Shown: positions 1 through 29,305 of the stretch, piece after piece | Layout: each line of letters opens with the position of its first letter | Position numbering within the stretch: position 1 is the first letter of the stretch | The notes under the pieces: generated by a model | Databases searched by the model: none | What the model was told of the DNA's origin: nothing | Seen by the model: the letters and a program-made list of their open reading frames with translations, nothing else | Made by a program: the position numbers and the translations under genes | IMG/VR virus record: IMGVR_UViG_2728369553_000012 | Reading direction: 5' to 3' (one strand) | DNA length: 29,305 bases | Origin: a virus | Lineage: Duplodnaviria > Heunggongvirae > Uroviricota > Caudoviricetes

Positions 1-981
1 TTATAACGTCACTCCGCCTTTTAGTGGATTCAGAGCGACGGCATTTTGCAGATAGTCAGGCGCAAGGTGCGCATAGGCCATCGTCTGCTGAATGCTCGCA
101 TGTCCCAGAATCTGTTGCAGTGCGATTATATTGCCCCCATTCATCATGAAATGGCTTGCGAATGTATGCCGCAGGATATGGGTTGCCTGATTGGGTGGTA
201 TATCAGGTTTCACTCTGCGTAAAATCCCGCAAAATTTCTCATAATCAACTTTGAATAATTTGGCGCTGGCCTCCTCTTTAACTTTTTTCTCCAGTTCCTC
301 AGAAATCGGCACGGTTCGCTTTTTACCGTTTTTGGTTTTCAGGAAGGTAACCCTGCAATTTGTAATCTGTGCTGGTTTTAGCGTGGCAACTTCCGTCCAT
401 CTTCCTCCAGTGCTCAGACATAAAAGCGCGACAAGTAAGTCATCACCAGCCAAAACATTTAACAGTTTTTCGATTTCTGCTTTTTCCAGGAACGTCATTT
501 CAGGGTTGGCCTCCGCCAGTGGCGGCAGTCCGTGAATTGGGTGTTGCCCGGAAAATTCATCCAATTGAATTAATTTTGTGAACATGCCGGATAATCGGTA
601 CATGTCACGGTTTATCGTTGCGGCACTGATACCATCACGTAGTCGCATGGAACGATAATCCATCAAAGCCCTTTTGCTCATCCTGTTCACTGGTATATCA
701 CCTATGCCGCTGATGGTTTTGAGTAGATGATTAAACTCTTTTGTTCCATGCTCGTGGTTTTGCCCGTGATATTTCCACCAGATGTCCAGCAACTCACTCA
801 AAGTCCGGCGGTCTGCTCGCTGGCCTCCCCATTCTTTCTGACTGGCATTGGCGATTGTGTATCGCTCAAATGCTAGTGCTTCAGCTTTTCTTTCGAATTT
901 CCTGCGGATGCGTTTTCCGTCGCGACCGCGAGGTCTAATGTCCACTTCATAGCGACCATCATCGAGCTTCTTAATTGCCAT
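1..981 (-). CDS. int: Phage integrase, tyrosine recombinase (P2 Int-like)
   Basis: ORF 1..1011 on the minus strand. C-terminus carries tyrosine-recombinase motifs (LRHTFAS ... LGHASIQQTMAYAH with the catalytic Tyr). The internal ATG at 981 (MAIKKLDDG...) is preceded by a GGAGGG ribosome-binding site, whereas the ATG at 1011 has none, so 981 is the preferred start. Divergent from the C repressor gene as in P2. Confidence 0.9.
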   Translation of the reverse strand: MAIKKLDDGRYEVDIRPRGRDGKRIRRKFERKAEALAFERYTIANASQKEWGGQRADRRTLSELLDIWWKYHGQNHEHGTKEFNHLLKTISGIGDIPVNRMSKRALMDYRSMRLRDGISAATINRDMYRLSGMFTKLIQLDEFSGQHPIHGLPPLAEANPEMTFLEKAEIEKLLNVLAGDDLLVALLCLSTGGRWTEVATLKPAQITNCRVTFLKTKNGKKRTVPISEELEKKVKEEASAKLFKVDYEKFCGILRRVKPDIPPNQATHILRHTFASHFMMNGGNIIALQQILGHASIQQTMAYAHLAPDYLQNAVALNPLKGGVTL

Positions 982-5775: not shown

Positions 5776-6035
5776 GTAAAAACACAACGTGATTTGATAT
5801 GGCATTGAATGGCTTATGCGGAGCAGTTATGGGGCAGCAGAAGGTCAATAGCATGCTGAATTAGAAGGCTAAATGCTATTGAGTGACTAGCATGTCGGTA
5901 AGGACAGCCGTTTGATCCGGGTCATAAAAGGCCATCCATTTAGTCTAATAAAATCATTGCGGGTAACCTTATGTCGACGCATAATTCGTCTTGAGCGAAG
6001 TCTTGTCAGTCTTTCATCGTATTGATGATGGGCGC

Positions 6036-6065
6036 AAAAAAACCACCCTGGCAGGTGGTTTTTTT
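6036..6065. terminator. Bidirectional rho-independent terminator
   Basis: AAAAAAACCACC-CTGGCA-GGTGGTTTTTTT: a 7-bp GC-containing stem with an A-run upstream and a T-run downstream, so it can terminate both the A transcript and the minus-strand small ORF. Confidence 0.6.
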
Positions 6066-6077
6066 GTTTGAAGCATA

Positions 6078-6191
6078 TTAAAGCATAATGCTGACATTGA
6101 TATTACTGACGTTTACTGACAAACCACTCGGACTACCGTTTGGATAGCCAAAGAGGGCCAGAACGAGAATGCAGTAATAGCATTTCTTCAT
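6078..6191 (-). CDS. Small hydrophobic peptide, 37 aa (MKKCYYCILVLALFGYPNGSPSGLSVNVSNINVSIML)
   Basis: Consensus AGGAGG 4 nt upstream of the ATG (plus-strand CCTCCT at 6196-6201). Short charged N-terminus, a 13-residue hydrophobic core and a polar tail; the stop lies 12 nt from the bidirectional terminator. I checked the translation by hand. The 88-codon version in the ORF track has no such ribosome-binding site. Confidence 0.4.
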   Translation of the reverse strand: MKKCYYCILVLALFGYPNGSPSGLSVNVSNINVSIML

Positions 6192-6669
6192 ATTGCCTCC
6201 TGTAAGTAGAGGGCAACTTCCACCGGTATATGCGCTTCTTAGGTGGAATGACTTTTGAGCGAAGTCTTGCCCTGAAATAATGCTCTGTTTAAACGCAAAG
6301 TGATTTGGCATATCACCGAACAGAGAGCCGGAAAAACACAACATATAGTATGTCGTTGTTTCTAGGCATACATTCTATGTTGTGTAACAAGGGCTTTGCA
6401 TTAAACATGTTTGAGATTTTATTGATGTAGCTCAAAGTAAAAAACAGAGACTACGGATGATAAGGTCTTGAAAGCAATGTAAATTTTTTAAAGTTGCCAA
6501 TTGCTTAAAAATGTACAGTTGCGGTATGGCGTACTTAAAAAGCTATGCATGCAACAAGTGAATGTTTTTGCATGCGTTGGGGATGTCCGTTCAGGCGGCG
6601 TGCGGTCAGGACTGGTGCGGATCCATAGTATCTATGCAACTGCATTAAAACCGCCCCGTGAAGCGGGCG

Positions 6670-6688
6670 GGCGAGGCGGGGAAAGCAC
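6670..6688. other. cos cohesive-end site
   Basis: GGCGAGGCGGGGAAAGCAC, which matches the 19-nt P2 cohesive end as I recall it, about 170 bp beyond the Q stop, as in P2. Confidence 0.55.
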
Positions 6689-6830
6689 TGCGCGCTGGCG
6701 GTGGTGCTGATTTTATTTTTTCAGCGTCTGAGCGCGTCGTGATGGCGTTTAGATTGTTCGCCGGGGCGTTGGTGTGTCTGCGGGCTGTTTTGTGCGGTGG
6801 TGAGCGTGTGAGGGCGTGATGGCGGGGTGT

Positions 6831-6852
6831 AAAAAAGCCGCCCGCAGGCGGC
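6831..6852 (-). terminator. Rho-independent terminator after Q
   Basis: GCCGCC-CGCA-GGCGGC hairpin; on the minus strand it is followed by a U-run (plus-strand A6 at 6831-6836), directly after the Q stop codon. Confidence 0.5.
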
Positions 6853-6857
6853 GATGT

Positions 6858-11827: not shown

Positions 11828-12633
11828 ATGACGAGTCCCGCACAGCGCCACATGATGCGGGTCTCGGCAGCGATGACCGCGCAGCGGGAAGCCGCCCCGC
11901 TGCGACATGCAACTGTCTATGAGCAGATGCTGGTTAAGCTCGCCGCAGACCAGCGCACACTGAAAGCGATTTATTCAAAAGAGCTTAAGGCCGCGAAAAA
12001 ACGCGAACTGCTGCCGTTCTGGTTGCCGTGGGTGAACGGCGTGCTGGAGCAGGGCAAAGGTGCACAGGATGACATTCTGATGACGGTCATGCTGTGGCGT
12101 CTGGATACCGGCGATATTGCCGGTGCGCTGGAGATTGCCCGTTATGCCCTGAAGTACGGTCTGACCATGCCGGGTAAACACCGCCGCACCCCGCCGTACA
12201 TGTTCACCGAGGAGGTGGCGCTTGCGGCCATGCGTGCTCACGCTGCCGGTGAGTCTGTGGATACCCGCCTGCTGACGGAGACCCTTGAACTGACCGCCAC
12301 GGCTGACATGCCTGATGAAGTGNNNNNNNNNNNNNNNNNNNNNNNNNNNNNNNNNNNNNNNNNNNNNNNNNNNNNNNNNNNNNNNGCGCAAAGCTGCACA
12401 AAATCACCGGTCTGTTTCTGCGTGACGGTGGTGATGCCGCCGGTGCGCTGGCTCACCTGCAACGTGCGACACAGCTCGACTGTCAGGCAGGCGTCAAAAA
12501 AGAGATTGAACGACTGGAGCGGGAGCTGAAACCGAAGCCGGAGCCGCAGCCCAAAGCGGCCACCCGTACCCCGCGTAAGACCCGGAGCGTGACACCGGCA
12601 AAACGTGGACGCCCGAAAAAGAAAGCCAGTTAA
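11828..12633 (+). CDS. M: Terminase small (endonuclease) subunit (P2 gpM-like), interrupted by an N run
   Basis: Follows N. Contains 63 N at 12323-12385, after which the frame changes; the C-terminal part ends at TAA 12631-12633 with a basic PKPEPQPKAATRTPRKTRS tail. True length unknown. Confidence 0.7.
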
Positions 12634-13242: not shown

Positions 13243-13521
13243 TGAAGACCTTTGCGCTACAGGGCGACACGCTCGACGCCATTTGTGTCCGGTATTACGG
13301 GCGCACTGAGGGCGTGGTTGAGACCGTGCTCGCCGCAAATCCGGGACTGTCTGAACTGGGTGCGGTGCTGCCACACGGCACCGCCGTCGAACTGCCCGAC
13401 GTTCAGACCGCGCCCGTGGCTGAAACNNNNNNNNNNNNNNNNNNNNNNNNNNNNNNNNNNNNNNNNNNNNNNNNNNNNNNNNNNNNNNNNNNNNNNNNNN
13501 NNTGTCAATCTGTGGGAGTAA
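13242..13521 (+). CDS. X: Tail protein X (P2 gpX-like), interrupted by an N run
   Basis: MKTFALQGDTLDAICVRYYGRTEGVVETVLAANPGL... matches P2 X (67 aa) as recalled, ending VNLWE after the N run 13427-13502. The N run is longer than the residues it replaces. Confidence 0.75.
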
Positions 13522-14317: not shown

Positions 14318-14797
14318 ATGAAGAAATTATCCCTTTCACTGACGCTGAACGTGTCGCTGGCGCTGATGCTGGCACTGTCCCTGATTTACCCGCAGAGCGT
14401 GGCCGTTAATTTTGTCGCCGCCTGGGCGATTATGGCGACGGTTATCTGTGTGGTTGCCGGTGGTGTCGGCGTGTATGCCACGGAGTATGTACTGGAACGC
14501 TACGGGCGGGAGCTGCCGCCGGAATCGCTGGCCGTGAAGATTGTCACGTCGCTGTTTTTGCAGCCGGTGCCGTGGCGCAGACGGGCGGCGGCTCTGGTAG
14601 TGATGGTGGCGACGTTTATCTCGCTGGTCGCTGCCGGGTGGATTTTTACTGCGCTGATTTATCTCGTGGCGTCGCNNNNNNNNNNNNNNNNNNNNNNNNN
14701 NNNNNNNNNNNNNNNNNNNNNNNNNNNNNNNNNTTTCCGGCTGATACGCACGGCCTGCCGTCAGCGTCTTGAGGGGCGGGAACTATGTCAAAGCTGA
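14318..14797 (+). CDS. lysA: Lysis timing membrane protein LysA-like, interrupted by an N run
   Basis: Multi-pass hydrophobic protein after K; 58 N at 14676-14733; stop overlaps the lysB start. Confidence 0.65.
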   Translation: MKKLSLSLTLNVSLALMLALSLIYPQSVAVNFVAAWAIMATVICVVAGGVGVYATEYVLERYGRELPPESLAVKIVTSLFLQPVPWRRRAAALVVMVATFISLVAAGWIFTALIYLVASXXXXXXXXXXXXXXXXXXXXFRLIRTACRQRLEGRELCQS

Positions 14798-20393: not shown

Positions 20394-20976
20394 CATCCGG
20401 CGCGGTGCTGGTATCTGTTGCCGTCACCGCGTCAATGTAATCCAGCACCGTGTTAAGTCGGCTGGTTTCTGCCTGCGTCAGATTCCGTCCGGCCCGTAAT
20501 TTCAGTTGAATCAGACTGATGGAAGCCATTGCAGTATCAATCAGCGACTGGCGTTGTGCTTCTGCTGCATCTACTGCGGCGCTATGCTGTGCATCGGTAT
20601 CCGTCACCCATTTCTCACCATCCCATTTATCGTATGGTGTTAACGGGGCGATAGTGGTTGTATTATCAGGGTAATCACCCGGAGCTGTGATTTCTTTTGA
20701 TTCTCCTGTTTCGGTGCTAAAGACGATTTCACCGCGATGGTCTGGCACATATTCCCATGAGTTAAAATCTGCAGAACGGCAGATTGCATAACCAGCCTTA
20801 TGTGTAACTGGTGCATCTAAACAAGAACATGCCGGGATACCGACGCCAACCGTAAGATATTCAGTTGATGTGGAAATATATTCCCGCGTTTCTCCGTTGT
20901 AGTTGTAAACGGTAATGAAGCCAGCCTCTGTGGCAAATCCGTTTTCATCCAAAGTGATTTTTTTTGTGGTCATCAT
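20365..20976 (-). CDS. Alternative tail fibre assembly protein (silent orientation)
   Basis: 203 aa on the minus strand, convergent with G; C-terminus LDYIDAVTATDTSTAPDVIWPELP is paralogous to G. Start ATG overlaps the stop of the upstream minus-strand fibre cassette. Confidence 0.75.
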   Translation of the reverse strand: MMTTKKITLDENGFATEAGFITVYNYNGETREYISTSTEYLTVGVGIPACSCLDAPVTHKAGYAICRSADFNSWEYVPDHRGEIVFSTETGESKEITAPGDYPDNTTTIAPLTPYDKWDGEKWVTDTDAQHSAAVDAAEAQRQSLIDTAMASISLIQLKLRAGRNLTQAETSRLNTVLDYIDAVTATDTSTAPDVIWPELPEE

Positions 20977-21428
20977 GCTGCCCTTACAATGTAGTTAAAT
21001 GCAATGTTACGTGGCCTTGTTTCTGCTGATGTTCTTGCACTCCTGGATAAATCAAGTGTCACACCATAGTAACTAAATGCATTACCAGTTGATGGAGCGG
21101 CATATTTAACCCCAGAACTAGAACCAACATTAAAAACTCCAGATGCTGAGGAAGCTGACCCCATAGTGTTATCAATCAGAGAACCCGTAACATTTTGCAT
21201 AGCGTCAAGTTGTTCGCTTAATAAAGCGCGTCCACTATCAACATCACGCCCGTCATCCCAGCCACGAATAAATTCACCTCGTAAATCAGGCAATTTATTT
21301 GTCGGATAAGCCTTTGCCAGTTCCGGGTATTCTTCAGCAGAAAAAAACGCACCGTTGCATTTCAGCCAGCCTGTTGGCGGAGTGGTGGAAGGCCACGGAA
21401 CAGGCACGCCAACGGGTAATGCCGAACC
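20973..21428 (-). CDS. Alternative tail-fibre C-terminal receptor-binding cassette; promoterless, expressed only after inversion fuses it to H
   Basis: Minus-strand ORF reading out of the right crossover site; fibre-tip-like sequence (LPVGVPVPWP...LPDLRGEFIRGWDDGR); no independent start expected. The same organisation as the Mu G segment and P1 C segment. Confidence 0.65.
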   Translation of the reverse strand, partial: GSALPVGVPVPWPSTTPPTGWLKCNGAFFSAEEYPELAKAYPTNKLPDLRGEFIRGWDDGRDVDSGRALLSEQLDAMQNVTGSLIDNTMGSASSASGVFNVGSSSGVKYAAPSTGNAFSYYGVTLDLSRSARTSAETRPRNIAFNYIVRAA

Positions 21429-21454
21429 TTCTCCCAAACCAACGTTTAAGAAAA
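21429..21454. repeat. Right crossover site of the invertible tail-fibre segment
   Basis: TTCTCCCAAACCAACGTTTAAGAAAA, an imperfect dyad resembling Gin/Pin/Hin-family recombination sites; inverted copy of the site at 19604-19629. Confidence 0.6.
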
Positions 21455-23956: not shown

Positions 23957-26455
23957 CAATGTAAAATTACAGGTATTGCTCAGGGCTGTTGACCAGGCAT
24001 CCCGCCCGTTTAAATCCATCCGCACAGCGAGCAAATCGCTGTCGGGGGATATCCGGGAAACACAAAAATCACTGCGCGAGCTGAACGGTCAGGCGTCCCG
24101 TATTGAGGGATTTCGCAAGACCAGTGCACAGCTCGCCGTGACTGGTCATGCACTTGAAAAGGCACGGCAGGAGGCTGAAGCCCTTGCCACACAGTTTAAA
24201 AACACCGAACGTCCGACCCGTGCTCAGGCGAAAGTGCTGGAATCCGCAAAGCGTGCGGCGGAGGACTTACAGGCGAAATATAACCGCCTGACGGATTCCG
24301 TTAAACGCCAGCAGCGGGAACTGGCCGCTGTGGGAATTAATACCCGCAATCTTGCACATGATGAGCAGGGACTGAAAAACCGTATCAGTGAAACCACCGC
24401 ACAGCTTAACCGTCAGCGCGACGCGCTGGCGCGTGTCAGTGCGCAACAGGCAAAACTTAACGCAGTCAAACAGCGTTATCAGGCCGGAAAGGAACTGGCC
24501 GGAAATATGGCCTCGGTGGGCGCTGCCGGTGTGGGGATTGCGGCGGCGGGAACGATGGCCGGAGTTAAGCTGCTGATGCCCGGTTATGAGTTTGCGCAGA
24601 AAAACTCAGAATTGCAGGCCGTGCTCGGAGTGGCAAAAGACTCCGCCGAAATGACCGCACTACGCAAACAGGCGCGCCAGCTCGGCGACAATACCGCCGC
24701 CTCGGCGGATGATGCGGCCGGTGCACAGATAATCATCGCGAAAGCGGGTGGGGATGTTGATGCCATTCAGGCGGCAACGCCGGTCACGCTGAATATGGCG
24801 CTGGCGAACCGCCGCACGATGGAAGAAAACGCCGCCCTGCTGATGGGGATGAAATCCGCCTTTCAGCTTTCAAACGATAAGGTCGCTCATATCGGGGATG
24901 TTCTCTCCATGACGATGAACAAAACCGCCGCCGATTTTGACGGCATGAGCGATGCGCTGACCTATGCCGCACCTGTGGCAAAAAATGCCGGTGTCAGCAT
25001 TGAAGAAACCGCCGCAATGGTCGGGGCGCTGCATGATGCAAAAATCACAGGCTCAATGGCGGGGACGGGAAGCCGTGCCGTGTTAAGCCGCCTGCAGGCN
25101 NNNNNNNNNNNNNNNNNNNNNNNNNNNNNNNNNNNNNNNNNNNNNNNNNNNNNNNNNNNNCGACGGGAAAAGCATGGGATGCACTCAAAGAGCTTGGCGT
25201 GAAAACCTCAGACAGCAAGGGAAACACCCGGCCAATATTTACCATTCTGAAAGAAATGCAGGCCAGTTTTGAGAAAAACCGGCTCGGTACTGCCCAGCAG
25301 GCTGAATACATGAAAACTATTTTCGGGGAGGAGGCCAGCTCAGCCGCCGCCGTGCTGATGACTGCCGCCTCAACCGGAAAGCTGGACAAACTGACCGCTG
25401 CGTTTAAAGCCTCAGACGGGAAGACCGCCGAGCTGGTAAATATCATGCAGGACAACCTAGGCGGTGACTTTAAAGAGTTTCAGTCCGCTTATGAGGCAGT
25501 GGGGACTGACCTGTTTGACCAGCAGGAAGGCGCGCTGCGTAAGCTCACGCAGACGGCCACAAAGTATGTGTTAAAACTCGACGGCTGGATCCAGAAAAAC
25601 AAATCACTGGCGTCAACCATCGGCATCATTGCCGGTGGCGCGCTGGCGCTGACTGGCATCATCGGTGCCATTGGCCTCGTAGCCTGGCCGGTTATCACCG
25701 GCATCAATGCCATCATCGCGGCAGCAGGCGCAATGGGGGCAGTCTTCACGACGGTTGGCAGTGCTGTTATGACCGCCATCGGGGCTATTAGCTGGCCGGT
25801 TGTGGCCGTGGTGGCCGCAATTGTCACCGGGGCGTTGCTTATCCGTAAATACTGGGAGCCTGTCAGCGCATTCTTTGGCGGTGTGGTTGAAGGGCTGAAA
25901 GTGGCATTTGCGCCGGTGGGGGAACTGTTCACGCCACTTAAGCCGGTGTTTGACTGGCTGGGTGAAAAGTTACAGGCCGCGTGGCAGTGGTTTAAAAACC
26001 TGATTGCTCCGGTCAAAGCCACTCAGGACACCCTGAACAGTTGCCGTGACACGGGGGGCATGTTCGGGCAGGCACTGGCTGACGCGCTGATGCTGCCGCT
26101 TAATGCGTTCAACAAACTGCGCAGCGGTATTGACTGGGTACTGGAAAAACTCGGTGTTATCAACAAAGAGTCAGACACACTTGACCAGACCGCCGCCAGA
26201 ACTCAAGCCGCCACGTATGGCAGCGGTGGTTATATTCCGGCGACCAGCTCTTATGCAGGCTATCAGGCTTATCAGCCGGTCACGGCACCGGCTGGCCGCT
26301 CTTATGTGGACCAGAGTAAAAACGAATATCACATCAGCCTGACGGGTGGTACTGCGCCGGGGACACAGCTTGACCGCCAGTTACAGGATGCGCTCGAAAA
26401 ATACGAGCGGGATAAACGTGCGCGCGCCCGTGCCAGCATGATGCATGACGGTTAA
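23949..26455 (+). CDS. T: Tail tape measure protein (P2 gpT-like), interrupted by an N run
   Basis: Long helical, Ala/Gln-rich protein with a hydrophobic Gly/Ala-rich central segment. The N run 25100-25160 splits it into two ORFs in different frames in the track (23949..25202 and 25199..26455). Confidence 0.85.
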
Positions 26456-26469
26456 GGAGGTGACGAAAA

Positions 26470-27001
26470 ATGATGCTCGCGTTAGGTATGTTTGTTTTTA
26501 TGCGCCAGACGCTGCCACACCAGACCATGCAGCGTGAATCAGATTATCGCTGGCCGTCAAATTCCCGTATCGGTAAACGGGATGCCTACCAGTTTCTCGG
26601 TGTGGGTGAGGAAAACATGACGCTTGCCGGCGTGCTTTATCCCGAACTGACCGGCGGGAAGCNNNNNNNNNNNNNNNNNNNNNNNNNNNNNNNNNNNNNN
26701 NNNNNNNNNNNNNNNGACGATGACCACGCTCAGGCTGATGGCAGAGGAAGGCCGGGCGTGGCCGTTGCTGGATGGCACCGGCATGATTTACGGCATGTAT
26801 GTCATCAGCAGGGTGAGTGAAACAGGGAGTATTTTCTTTGCAGACGGCACACCCAGAAAAATTGATTTTACGCTGTCGCTCACCCGCGTTGATGAATCAC
26901 TGGCCGCGCTTTATGGCGATATCGGTAAACAGGCGGAATCGCTCATCGGTAAAGCTGGCAGTATGGCGACCAGATTCACGGGTATGACGGGGGCGGGATA
27001 A
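26470..27001 (+). CDS. U: Tail protein (P2 gpU-like), interrupted by an N run
   Basis: Between T and D; N run 26663-26715; stop overlaps the D start (TAATG). Confidence 0.75.
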
Positions 27002-28222
27002 TGCTGGATGCACTGACATTTGATGCAGGCAGTACGCTGACGCCGGATTACATGCTGATGCTCGACAGCAGGGATATTACCGGCAATATCAGCGACCGTC
27101 TGATGAGCATGACCCTGACGGATAACCGGGGCTTTGAGGCTGACCAGCTTGATATTGAACTGAACGATGCCGACGGGCAGGTCGGGCTGCCGGTTCGTGG
27201 CGCTGTCCTGACGGTGTATATCGGCTGGAAAGGTTTTGCCCTGGTATGCAAAGGGAAATTTACCGTTGATGAGGTTGAACACCGGGGCGCACCGGATGTG
27301 GTCACCATCCGCGCCCGGAGTGCAGATTTTCGCGGGACGCTCAATTCCCGCCGTGAAGGCTCATGGCATGACACCACGCTCGGTGCGATTGTTGAGGCGA
27401 TAGCCTCCCGTAATAAGCTGGAANNNNNNNNNNNNNNNNNNNNNNNNNNNNNNNNNNNNNNNNNNNNNNNNNNNNNNNNNNNNCAGTGTCGCGCCGTCAC
27501 TGGCAGGAATTAAAATCCCGCACATCGACCAGTCGCAGGAGTCTGATGCGAAATTCCTGACCCGTCTTGCAGAACGCAACGGCGGTGAGGTGTCGGTAAA
27601 AATGGGAAAACTGTTGTTTCTCAAAGCGGGGCAGGGGGTGACGGCCAGCGGTAAAAAAATCCCGCAGATTACCATCACCCGCAGCGACGGCGACCGCCAT
27701 CATTTTGCGATTGCTGACCGTGGAGCCTATACCGGCGTAACGGCAAAGTGGTTACACACCAAAGACCCGAAGCCACAAAAGCAGAAGGTAAAACTGAAAC
27801 GCAAAAAGAAAGAGAAACACCTGCGCGCACTGGAGCACCCGAAAGCGAAACCAGTCACGCAGAAGAAAGCGCCAAAAGTACCGGAAGCGCGCGAAGGTGA
27901 ATACATGGCAGGTGAGGCTGACAACGTTTTTGCCCTGACCACGGTATATGCCACGAAAGCGCAGGCCATGCGCGCCGCTCAGGCGAAGTGGGATAAGCTG
28001 CAACGGGGTGTTGCGGAATTCTCCATCAGTCTGGCTACTGGTCGGGCAGATATTTATACGGAAACGCCGGTCAAAGTGTCAGGCTTTAAGCGCGTCATAG
28101 ACGAGCAGGACTGGACAATCACTAAGGTGACACATTTTCTGAATAATAGCGGCTTCACGACGTCCTTAGAGCTTGAGGTCAGGCTTTCTGATGTGGAGTA
28201 CGAAACAGAAGATGATGAATGA
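27001..28222 (+). CDS. D: Tail protein D / late control gene D (P2 gpD-like), interrupted by an N run
   Basis: Last large late gene before ogr; N run 27424-27483; about 387 aa expected. Confidence 0.8.
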
Positions 28223-28304: not shown

Positions 28305-28523
28305 ATGTTTCATTGTCCTTTATGCCAGCATGCCGCACATGCGCGTACAAGTCGCTATATCACTGACACGACAAAAGAGCGTTATCACCAGTGCCAGAAC
28401 GTGAATTGCAGCGCCACGTTCATCACTTATGAGTCGGTACAGCGATACATCGTGAAGCCGGGAGAAGTCCACGCCGTAAAACCGCACCCGTTGCCGTCAG
28501 GGCAGCAAATTATGTGGATGTAA
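28305..28523 (+). CDS. ogr: Late-gene transcription activator Ogr (zinc finger)
   Basis: MFHCPLCQHAAHARTSRYITDTTKERYHQCQNVNCSATFITYESVQRYIVKPGEVHAVKPHPLPSGQQIMWM: 72 aa, near-identical to P2 Ogr as I recall it, with the CxxC...CxxxxC zinc finger. AAGAGG ribosome-binding site upstream of the ATG at 28305. Confidence 0.9.
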   Translation: MFHCPLCQHAAHARTSRYITDTTKERYHQCQNVNCSATFITYESVQRYIVKPGEVHAVKPHPLPSGQQIMWM

Positions 28524-28533
28524 TTACAAACAG

Positions 28534-28565
28534 AAAGCCCCTCAGTCGAGGGGCTTTCTGTTTTG
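28534..28565 (+). terminator. Rho-independent terminator after ogr
   Basis: AGCCCCTC-AGTC-GAGGGGCT hairpin followed by TTCTGTTTT. Confidence 0.7.
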
Positions 28566-28663
28566 GGGAATATTCTTCATTAAAAGTAGTGGATCACGTT
28601 TAATAAACTATGTTTATCATATACTTAAAAGTCAATCTTTAAAGTTGGACAGGTTGGTGGAAA

Positions 28664-29305
28664 ATGGAAAAAGTTATAATTGAGCTTGATAATCGTTGGG
28701 AGTTAGCTGATTTCGCGGTCTTAACGAAAGAGTATTTGCAGCTATATGGTTTTTTTTATGGCCTAAAAGGAGGATCAAGAGGATATTCAACAATGCCTTG
28801 GGAGGGTGGGCACAGTGTGGTGAACTTTTTTAGAGGGGCTTACAGTGCGACTCCACCAGATTTACGTCCTGTAGTGAAAAAAATTCAGTATGCCTCTCCT
28901 GGCTTTATTGAATTGTCTGCTCTTATTGATATCTCTTGGCAGATTGCTGAGTTAGTTACTGCTGTTGGTGGAAGTATTCTGGCTGCCAACAAAGTTTACG
29001 ATCAGGTGATGCGTACATATCGACAAAGAGAATGGGCAAAGTTGAAATCAGAGAAGCTGCGTATACAGAATCAAATTAAAGAGATTGAACTTGTTTCTGA
29101 CGCAGTTAAATCACTTGAATCTGTGATGGCACTTAGTGAAGAACAACGTAAAAACTTGGTTCAACTATCGGGGGCAGATGAACTGGTTCAGTTAAAGATA
29201 CTTTTGGCTGTTTACCGACGGTTATCTCCTCTTGTTGAGTTGCAAAACAGCGGGAAAGCTAATTTTTCTGCTGGGAAAAATAAAAATTTAAAAGCGTCCG
29301 ATTAA
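28664..29305 (+). CDS. Hypothetical 213-aa protein, AT-rich, beyond the ogr terminator
   Basis: Complete ORF with a GGTGG ribosome-binding site; much more AT-rich than the prophage; the C-terminal half looks coiled-coil-like. No recognisable catalytic motif. Lies outside the canonical P2 gene set. Confidence 0.55.
   Translation: MEKVIIELDNRWELADFAVLTKEYLQLYGFFYGLKGGSRGYSTMPWEGGHSVVNFFRGAYSATPPDLRPVVKKIQYASPGFIELSALIDISWQIAELVTAVGGSILAANKVYDQVMRTYRQREWAKLKSEKLRIQNQIKEIELVSDAVKSLESVMALSEEQRKNLVQLSGADELVQLKILLAVYRRLSPLVELQNSGKANFSAGKNKNLKASD

Follow-up and report, generated by a model that had tools for sequence, protein, structure and literature searches.

A low-GC cassette at the ogr–attP junction of a P2-like prophage

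The window analysed here is a 29,305-bp stretch of viral DNA (Caudoviricetes; IMG/VR record IMGVR_UViG_2728369553_000012) that represents a P2-like prophage. It closes on the subject of this study, an open reading frame (ORF) whose product stands alone and is homologous to the C-terminal module of PD-T4-10B, the toxin of the anti-phage defence system PD-T4-10 (Table 1). Over the end that was tested, the window is 100% identical to Escherichia coli MNCRE44, in which the prophage sits between cpxP and fieF. The limits of the window are those of a provirus call trimmed at gene boundaries, from the stop codon of the minus-strand integrase gene int to the stop codon of the ORF; with provirus callers that trim in this way, the status of the last gene may be ambiguous until the attachment (att) sites have been mapped. 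The gene ogr, 97–99% identical to ogr of P2 and its relatives, precedes the ORF, and the ogr terminator forms the left boundary of an inserted cassette. The GC content of the ORF is 39.9% (31.8% at third codon positions) and that of the cassette 38.4%, whereas the remaining 28.5 kb of the window have 53.6%.

Table 1 Coordinates of the cassette, its coding sequence and the flanking prophage features (window numbering).
Feature	Position	Strand	Description
int	1..981	-	327-residue integrase by translation; the window opens on its stop codon (L002 10340 in MNCRE44)
ogr	28305..28523	+	Late-gene activator, last canonical P2 gene; ogrK in the 100%-identical record
Rho-independent terminator of ogr / F operon	28533..28564	+	GAAAGCCCCTC-AGTC-GAGGGGCTTTC, then TGTTTT; aligns with the annotated P2 terminator
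Low-GC inserted cassette (moron)	28562..29305	+	753 bp in total, continuing ~11 nt past the window end up to the Int P-arm
Leader	28565..28663	+	AT-rich; without strong promoter consensus
ORF (coding sequence)	28664..29305	+	213 codons; ATG at 28664, TAA stop at 29303-29305 (last three bases of the window)
ORF product	WP_000416606.1		Annotated 'hypothetical protein'; stand-alone homologue of the PD-T4-10B C-terminal module
Alpha/beta core	28664..28924 (codons 1-87)	+	Most family-invariant motifs: LDxRW, YxQLYG, PWxGGxSxVNFF, IQYASPGFIEL
Helical half	28925..29248 (codons 88-195)	+	50-residue helix 105-154; last helix with LKILLxxYRR (K178, R185, R186)
Hairpin 5' arm (AGCGTCCG) and start of loop	29293..29305	.	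8-bp perfect hairpin across the stop codon; 3' arm just outside the window

The window stops 20–190 bp short of the two att cores and of the Int arm sites (TGTGGAC-N4-TGTGGACA on each side). The core is a 47-bp perfect direct repeat, GACACCATCCCTGTCTTCCCCCACATGATGTGGGGGTTTTTTTTATC, which is the cpxP terminator and is found after cpxP and again 83 bp 3' of the ORF, where it stands 78 bp before fieF (cores at L002 10177–10223 and L001 13189–13235, with the ORF ending at L001 13106; L numbers denote the sequence loci that we extracted). On the left, attL and cpxP are located ~120–190 bp beyond the end of int. On the right, the ORF is followed by the P-arm, attR and the host genes fieF and pfkA; the interval between the ORF and the right core contains CGATGTGGACGCTATGTGGACAG and then an A/T-rich stretch, corresponding by alignment to the Int P-arm and IHF site in the P2 annotation. 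The excisable phage genome between the cores measures ~29.2 kb. In the annotated P2 record the Int P-arm begins 4 bp past the ogr terminator, and in a sister prophage at the same cpxP–fieF site (strain 2014EL-1345-2) the ogr terminator runs straight into the same P-arm without the cassette, giving an ogr-to-fieF span of 542 bp versus 1295 bp here. At empty cpxP–fieF sites the match starts at the first base of the 47-bp core, and the ORF is absent.

Because P2 and the sister prophage both pass directly from the ogr terminator into the P-arm, the ORF constitutes a 753-bp insertion, and it has two properties of a moron, namely presence or absence at a fixed point among collinear relatives (the 753-bp indel) and a distinct base composition. 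The ORF thus lies inside the excisable prophage, at the ogr–attP junction. With the ogr terminator on one side and the P-arm of attP on the other, the cassette shares in the excision, packaging and transfer of the phage. The original prediction, made from the letters of the window alone, had stated that the P2 gene set ends at ogr with the attachment site directly after it, which the annotated P2 record bears out. It had also offered three origins for the ORF. Prophage-end cargo proved to be correct, with an att core 3' of the ORF and the P-arm between the two, and neither the first gene of an adjacent island nor a host-flank gene survives the att mapping and the comparison with empty sites; the combination of an att core between ogr and the ORF with an ORF that is a host core gene was not what we found.

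The ORF is a conserved gene carried by prophages of three genera

A GGTGG motif (28656–28660) that ends 3 nt 5' of the ATG is the likely ribosome-binding site of the ORF, so that the earlier description of an AT-rich, complete ORF of 213 residues with its own ribosome-binding site agrees with the coordinates and composition given above. The further suggestion that the AT-rich upstream region could hold a promoter was not confirmed: no sigma-70 promoter was found on the + strand of the 100-bp leader in a standard consensus scan (none reaching 9/12 matches), and the best candidate in a relaxed scan had 8/12. Among the orthologues of E. coli, Kosakonia and Enterobacter, the DNA upstream of the gene is not conserved. 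At the 3' end, the hairpin that spans the stop codon, AGCGTCCG-ATTAAA-CGGACGCT, occupies 29293–29305 and ~10 nt beyond the window (L001 13094–13115). It is followed by a T-run on the minus strand only (terminator-like site L001 13115–13094), whereas the E. coli + strand lacks one. Once the phage is circular, the hairpin would keep int-direction transcripts from reading antisense through the ORF. In Kosakonia, a canonical + strand terminator follows the orthologue instead, and no ogr terminator precedes it.

Comparison with the Kosakonia and Enterobacter orthologues gave a pN of 0.12–0.26 against a saturated pS of 0.76–0.85, corresponding to a pN/pS of ~0.16–0.31. By this measure purifying selection acts on the ORF, which is clearly not a chance reading frame. 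A copy with at least 99% identity is present in 160 of 5426 complete E. coli genomes (2.9%), with the frame at full length in all 160; it is always on a prophage and always annotated 'hypothetical protein'. The carriers, ~3% of all complete E. coli genomes, include clinical isolates of ST131 type and carbapenem-resistant ones, and the gene is skipped by defence-annotation pipelines. The ogr–ORF–attR order recurs in Salmonella and also in Kosakonia arachidis, whose protein shares 81% identity and whose non-coding flanks are different, so that the same arrangement is found in three genera.

These data bear on the possibility that the ORF is a non-functional remnant, a host-flank gene or a relic of some adjacent island, taken in through an imprecise prophage call. 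Such an origin is what a window boundary produced by gene-boundary trimming, with the ORF as the last gene before host DNA, would lead one to suspect; we regard it as barely credible, given an att core and P-arm beyond the ORF, the lack of the ORF from empty sites and from the sister prophage, strong purifying selection, the 160 unbroken frames and the shared arrangement in three genera. A host gene or remnant was accordingly rejected on the att mapping and the selection together.

By a rough estimate, extrapolated from an evenly spaced genome sample, ~500–600 E. coli genomes carry an ORF-less P2-like prophage at the cpxP–fieF site versus 159 with an ORF-bearing one. In some E. coli strains an IS150 element lies between the ogr terminator and the ORF (E. 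coli GZ04-0083, L009 3605–4974), which disrupts or replaces the leader; this may affect up to ~74 of the 159 ORF-bearing genomes. No isolated-phage record in INPHARED encodes the protein. Salmonella phage STYP1 (KX833211/NC_073747, 28486–28946) matches through the cassette leader and ends one base before the ATG of the ORF; judged from this alignment, the depositor's prophage boundary cut the ORF off the 28.9-kb deposited sequence. Among plasmids, the sole 100% match is NZ_CP092913.1 (L066), an 80-kb linear Salmonella 'plasmid' in PLSDB, which carries fieF, pfkA, sbp and cdh together with a P2-like prophage end and is evidently a chromosomal contig mislabelled as a plasmid; ogr, the ORF and fieF follow one another on it as they do here, and it is the source of the Salmonella arrangement given above. 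Relatives were found on 18 viral contigs in IMG/VR, one of which, a P2-like contig (L088), bears a full pair of PD-T4-10A and long-form PD-T4-10B.

The product corresponds to the C-terminal module of PD-T4-10B

PD-T4-10 was found by functional selection in E. coli ECOR65 (RCO36089.1 and RCO36088.1) and consists of two overlapping ORFs without predicted function that protect against T-even phages by abortive infection (Vassallo et al. 2022, PMC9519451); the system is included in PADLOC and DefenseFinder. PD-T4-10B is toxic, and PD-T4-10A, which neutralises it, cannot be deleted (PMC9519451); DUF6575 is the one domain that these authors recognised in the system (Vassallo et al. 2022). In a PADLOC search the ORF product matched PD-T4-10_B (PDLC04024) with an E-value of 1.3e-34, residues 3–201 aligning with model positions 139–346 of 353. 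Searches of Pfam, PHROGs and NCBIfam returned no significant family for it.

A first search for relatives yielded 118 homologues, and an exhaustive profile search yielded 790 representative clusters at 50% identity, with a range from Escherichia and other Proteobacteria to Acidobacteria and Spirochaetes. The exhaustive search revealed two architectures: domain-only proteins of ~205–245 residues, the type encoded by the ORF, which make up the majority of the best 150 matches, and proteins of ~320–400 residues with the same domain at the C-terminus. The long forms cover the PADLOC B model end to end, and their extra N-terminal part is the Pfam domain DUF6575 (PF20215). Aligned by hhalign, the whole short family falls on columns 138–352 of the long family with a probability of 100% and an E-value of 3.2e-53. 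Pfam did not find DUF6575 in the ORF product, which starts at the equivalent of model position 139, and with the ogr terminator upstream there is no place for an exon-like extension. By these profile matches the soluble product of the ORF corresponds, over its full length, to the C-terminal two-thirds of PD-T4-10B.

When 37 short and 23 long forms were aligned together, Y28, G49, S78, P79 and G80 were invariant, and W12, G48, S51, Y76, K/R178 and R185 were conserved in at least 93% of the sequences. The motif set kept in both architectures comprises Y28, GG-S, YASPG, K/R178 and R185. AlphaFold, supplied with the family alignment, produced a confident model (pLDDT 87, pTM 0.60) in which an alpha/beta core is followed by helices at residues 88–103, 105–154, 159–169 and 173–195; the helical C-terminal half had been anticipated in the original prediction. 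Profile searches of the Protein Data Bank (PDB) with the short and the long family gave no match. According to the model, the fold is without a solved relative, and a biochemical function is not readable from it. The invariant Ser, Gly, Tyr, Lys and Arg residues suggest a small ligand-binding or catalytic pocket formed from the alpha/beta core and the last helix, and the long helices of the model suggest oligomerisation. The idea of a membrane protein was also considered and rejected: no transmembrane segment was found, the most hydrophobic 19-residue segment reaching a Kyte-Doolittle score of only 1.35.

PD-T4-10A accompanies DUF6575 and not the C-terminal module

The genomic context of the family was surveyed in 51 genome loci from very diverse bacteria, more than 40 of them with short forms and four with long forms. 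Each long form is preceded by an abutting or overlapping ORF of 114–147 codons, and two of these upstream ORFs were identified as PD-T4-10_A by PADLOC (E=1e-39 and 1e-43). A hidden Markov model (HMM) of A was built from the ORFs upstream of the long forms, those of L058 and L060 being the ones validated by PADLOC. The model matched only upstream of long forms (L054, L056, L058, L060 and L088) and upstream of a DUF6575 protein with another C-terminus (L067 and L068). Nothing was detected with it in the six-frame translation of the window, in its flanks (L001) or in the 40-plus short-form loci, where the best E-value was above 1. DUF6575 and a PD-T4-10A gene, the two defining features of PD-T4-10, were thus both looked for and are both missing from the ORF and its surroundings, and for this reason the ORF is not a member of PD-T4-10 as that system is defined.

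DUF6575 itself occurs alone or with other C-termini. In one case it heads a 406-residue protein with an unrelated C-terminal part, and an overlapping A-like ORF precedes the gene (E=4e-16 before its inclusion in the model). Because A also precedes a DUF6575 protein with an unrelated C-terminus, A and DUF6575 are the constant pair and the C-terminal part is the exchangeable one. A-like genes joined to DUF6575 proteins whose C-termini are unrelated to PD-T4-10B were seen at L067/L068 2007–3227 and L083 1758–3535, one of these C-termini having weak restriction-enzyme-like and DUF7226-like similarity. The pattern suggests a modular A + DUF6575-X family that is broader than PD-T4-10.

The same distribution can be read in another way, in which DUF6575 is the toxin neutralised by A and the C-terminal module is a sensor, regulator or oligomerisation part, a phage-borne copy of which would, as a dominant-negative or decoy, poison PD-T4-10-type complexes or soak up their trigger and so help the P2-like phage or its lysogen to withstand such systems. 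A strictly tracks DUF6575 rather than the C-terminal module, which would fit this, as would the occurrence of DUF6575 alone or with other C-termini, which is expected of an A + DUF6575 toxin–antitoxin core; an antitoxin-free module is easily tolerated if it is non-toxic, its long helices suit hetero-oligomerisation, and in L083 a short form lies ~900 bp from an A + DUF6575 pair. Sensors of phage proteins normally diversify fast, however, whereas this module keeps its invariant, active-site-like motifs from Escherichia to Acidobacteria and Spirochaetes. Most short forms have no long form nearby, and integron cassettes and lone chromosomal copies are odd places for an anti-defence gene. PD-T4-10, moreover, is known only to act against T-even phages and not against P2-like phages (PMC9519451). 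We consider an anti-defence role decidedly unlikely.

Short forms travel as single genes

When the neighbours of the short forms were clustered across the 51 loci, no conserved partner gene emerged: the most frequent cluster was present in 3 of 51, and none of those copies was adjacent. By the usual criterion for a type II toxin–antitoxin system, an adjacent gene for a cognate protein antitoxin, the family does not qualify, either in these loci or in single-gene cassettes. In Vibrio, a copy is flanked on both sides by VCR-type attC repeats and is hence a one-gene integron cassette, in which the ORF takes up 630 of ~793 bp. On the evidence of these loci, short forms travel as single genes. The idea that the ORF might be one component of a system continuing past the window edge is refuted, the P-arm, attR, fieF and pfkA being what comes next and no conserved partner being present in the surveyed loci.

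An antitoxin of an unrecognised kind, such as an antisense or leader RNA or a mini-ORF within the 753-bp cassette, would make the cassette mainly an addiction or stabilisation module, whether or not abortive infection came as a side effect. That the parent protein PD-T4-10B is a validated toxin speaks for this, and the cassette does offer candidate elements, namely minus-strand promoter-like sites in the leader (L001 12444–12408), the hairpin across the stop codon that is terminator-like on the minus strand only, and antisense ORFs of 39 residues (28674–28793) and 35 residues (28885–28992). The minus-strand promoter-like matches point away from the ORF, however, and their number, 4, does not exceed what shuffled sequence gives (2.5 ± 1.6 expected). 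The upstream regions of the orthologues are unconserved, the Vibrio cassette is almost without spare room, and no conserved small neighbour was found in the 51 loci. A cryptic toxin–antitoxin pair is therefore very unlikely in our estimation.

Several short forms are found in the company of defence genes. In a Pseudomonas prophage lineage, the short form stands next to a CI-type repressor and is followed, after ~27 bp, by a DUF4917/SIR2-like gene that matches the PADLOC defence candidate PDC-S21 (E=1e-95); in these prophages (L080, L081, L085 and L005/L016) the short form and the PDC-S21 gene may be a two-gene unit. On the viral contig L083, the short form has a Drt8 reverse-transcriptase defence gene (E=2e-141) on one side and, on the other, a DUF6575 protein whose partner is weakly A-like. 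Other copies, on chromosomes, sit among ordinary housekeeping and metabolic genes (L010 and L014). The latter would be expected if the gene were lysogenic-conversion or housekeeping-type cargo, acting in stress, the envelope or nucleic-acid metabolism, with PD-T4-10B having merely recruited the domain; the lack of annotation in Pfam, PHROGs and NCBIfam and a fold from which no function can be read are equally compatible with such a role. Set against it are the facts that the only experimentally characterised relative is a defence toxin (PMC9519451), that copies recur in prophages, integron cassettes and defence neighbourhoods, and that the distribution in E. coli is patchy (2.9% of genomes), always prophage-borne and of low-GC, foreign composition. 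Cargo of this type is, in our judgement, unlikely.

A candidate single-gene anti-phage effector

We favour the interpretation that the ORF acts as a single-gene anti-phage effector and shields the lysogen much like P2 tin, old and fun, and assign it a rough probability of 0.55. Four sequence-based observations lead us to this: the module occupies an exchangeable slot behind the control pair, active-site-like motifs are kept in both architectures, the gene is mobile on its own, and defence genes are among its neighbours. In the mechanism that we propose, the product would be a self-contained effector of the abortive-infection or exclusion type, expressed from the lysogen, and its domain would be the one that fills the swappable effector slot behind the constant A and DUF6575 control pair of the long forms. 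The protein would be kept harmless by low expression or by auto-inhibition instead of by an antitoxin, and it would become active, or relevant, on infection by an unrelated lytic phage, for which the T-even phages are the obvious candidates.

Several points weigh against an effector. The main one is that the toxic half of PD-T4-10B may be DUF6575, a reading with which the strict co-occurrence of A and DUF6575 fits equally well; the C-terminal module would then be a sensor or regulator, and on its own it would not be an effector. A toxin domain without an antitoxin would need some safety mechanism. The neighbourhood argument relies on mere association at a handful of loci, and several of the chromosomal copies are surrounded, as noted, by housekeeping or metabolic genes. 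Finally, the leader yielded no convincing promoter from which the gene would be expressed in the lysogen.

A wider and more tentative proposal, to which we give somewhat less than even odds on the comparisons above, is that the C-terminal module of PD-T4-10B is in itself an autonomous immune protein and that the short forms make up a one-gene defence family of ~215 residues with hundreds of clusters at 50% identity. If so, this family would have no need of DUF6575 or an antitoxin and would be missed by defence finders that require both A and B, while PD-T4-10 would be an effector under a modular A + DUF6575 switch able to drive other C-terminal effectors. P2-like phages would then have one more cargo slot, not yet listed, at the ogr–attP junction. 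The ORF also offers a simple handle on the workings of PD-T4-10, a validated but mechanistically unexplained defence system: because the module exists alone, the antitoxin tracks DUF6575, and A + DUF6575 occurs with other C-termini, the question of which half of PD-T4-10 kills and which controls becomes testable with a 640-bp gene.

Other features of the prophage

The classical P2 defence hotspot GpA–GpQ, from the replication gene A to the portal gene Q (window 5776–6857), is ~1.1 kb long, without an annotated gene and nearly empty, with one 88-residue ORF (6078–6344, minus strand) in a stretch of 35–44% GC. Since this hotspot is nearly empty, the ORF cassette is the only obvious cargo of the prophage. 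At ~20470–21430 of the window (MNCRE44 4416811–4417763), the tail-fibre genes are followed by a tail-fibre-assembly gene in reverse orientation, a gp53-like fragment and what is left of a recombinase gene, a truncated pseudogene; by its gene content this segment looks like the remnant of an invertible host-range segment, at the place where P2 has Z/fun. The window also contains six runs of N of 53–76 nt (12323–12385, 13427–13502, 14676–14733, 25100–25160, 26663–26715 and 27424–27483), at which the ORF calls are broken. One of these is inside gene D, just upstream of the ORF cassette, and the affected genes are intact in the identical MNCRE44 record.

Comparison with known systems

The closest known system is PD-T4-10. 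The ORF is homologous throughout to the C-terminal ~210 residues of PD-T4-10B and has the same invariant motifs. A P2-like prophage is its carrier, as it was for many systems in the screen that yielded PD-T4-10, and a long form with its A gene is likewise found on the P2-like contig L088. Unlike PD-T4-10, the ORF has no DUF6575, no overlapping upstream PD-T4-10A and no two-gene operon, and the effector role that we propose for it is inferred. The location differs as well, the ORF being at the ogr–attP junction and not in the two published P2 hotspots.

Two papers that map the hotspots of P2-like prophages name GpA–GpQ, the fun locus in the tail genes, int-att and int-primase, and leave the ogr side of attP unnamed. 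The minor hotspot 'int-att' is the integrase side of att (PMC13586616), whereas our cassette is on the ogr side. A general hotspot at the ogr–att junction, an idea that we also entertained, is unsupported: the junction holds nothing in P2, the sister prophage or any of three sampled prophages at other att sites, a small sample. The ORF does share with the int-att hotspot, and with the ctx gene of phiCTX, a position at the end of the prophage map beside att from which cargo is mobilised with the phage. In phiCTX, which is P2-like, ctx is a cytotoxin gene next to attP.

P2 carries old, tin and Z/fun, single genes of foreign composition that are dispensable for phage growth and are thought to shield the lysogen from other phages. 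They occupy the GpA–GpQ slot or the fun locus among the tail genes, in contrast to the ORF, which follows ogr beside attP, and Old, Tin and Fun have no sequence or fold relationship to the ORF product. The P2 Tin protein excludes T-even phages, which are the target group of PD-T4-10 too. CapRel, a fused toxin–antitoxin, is a single-chain, self-regulated abortive-infection toxin. It is not homologous to the ORF product, in which no auto-inhibitory segment was identified, but it provides a precedent for a one-gene defence protein without a separate antitoxin, the logic that we propose for the ORF.

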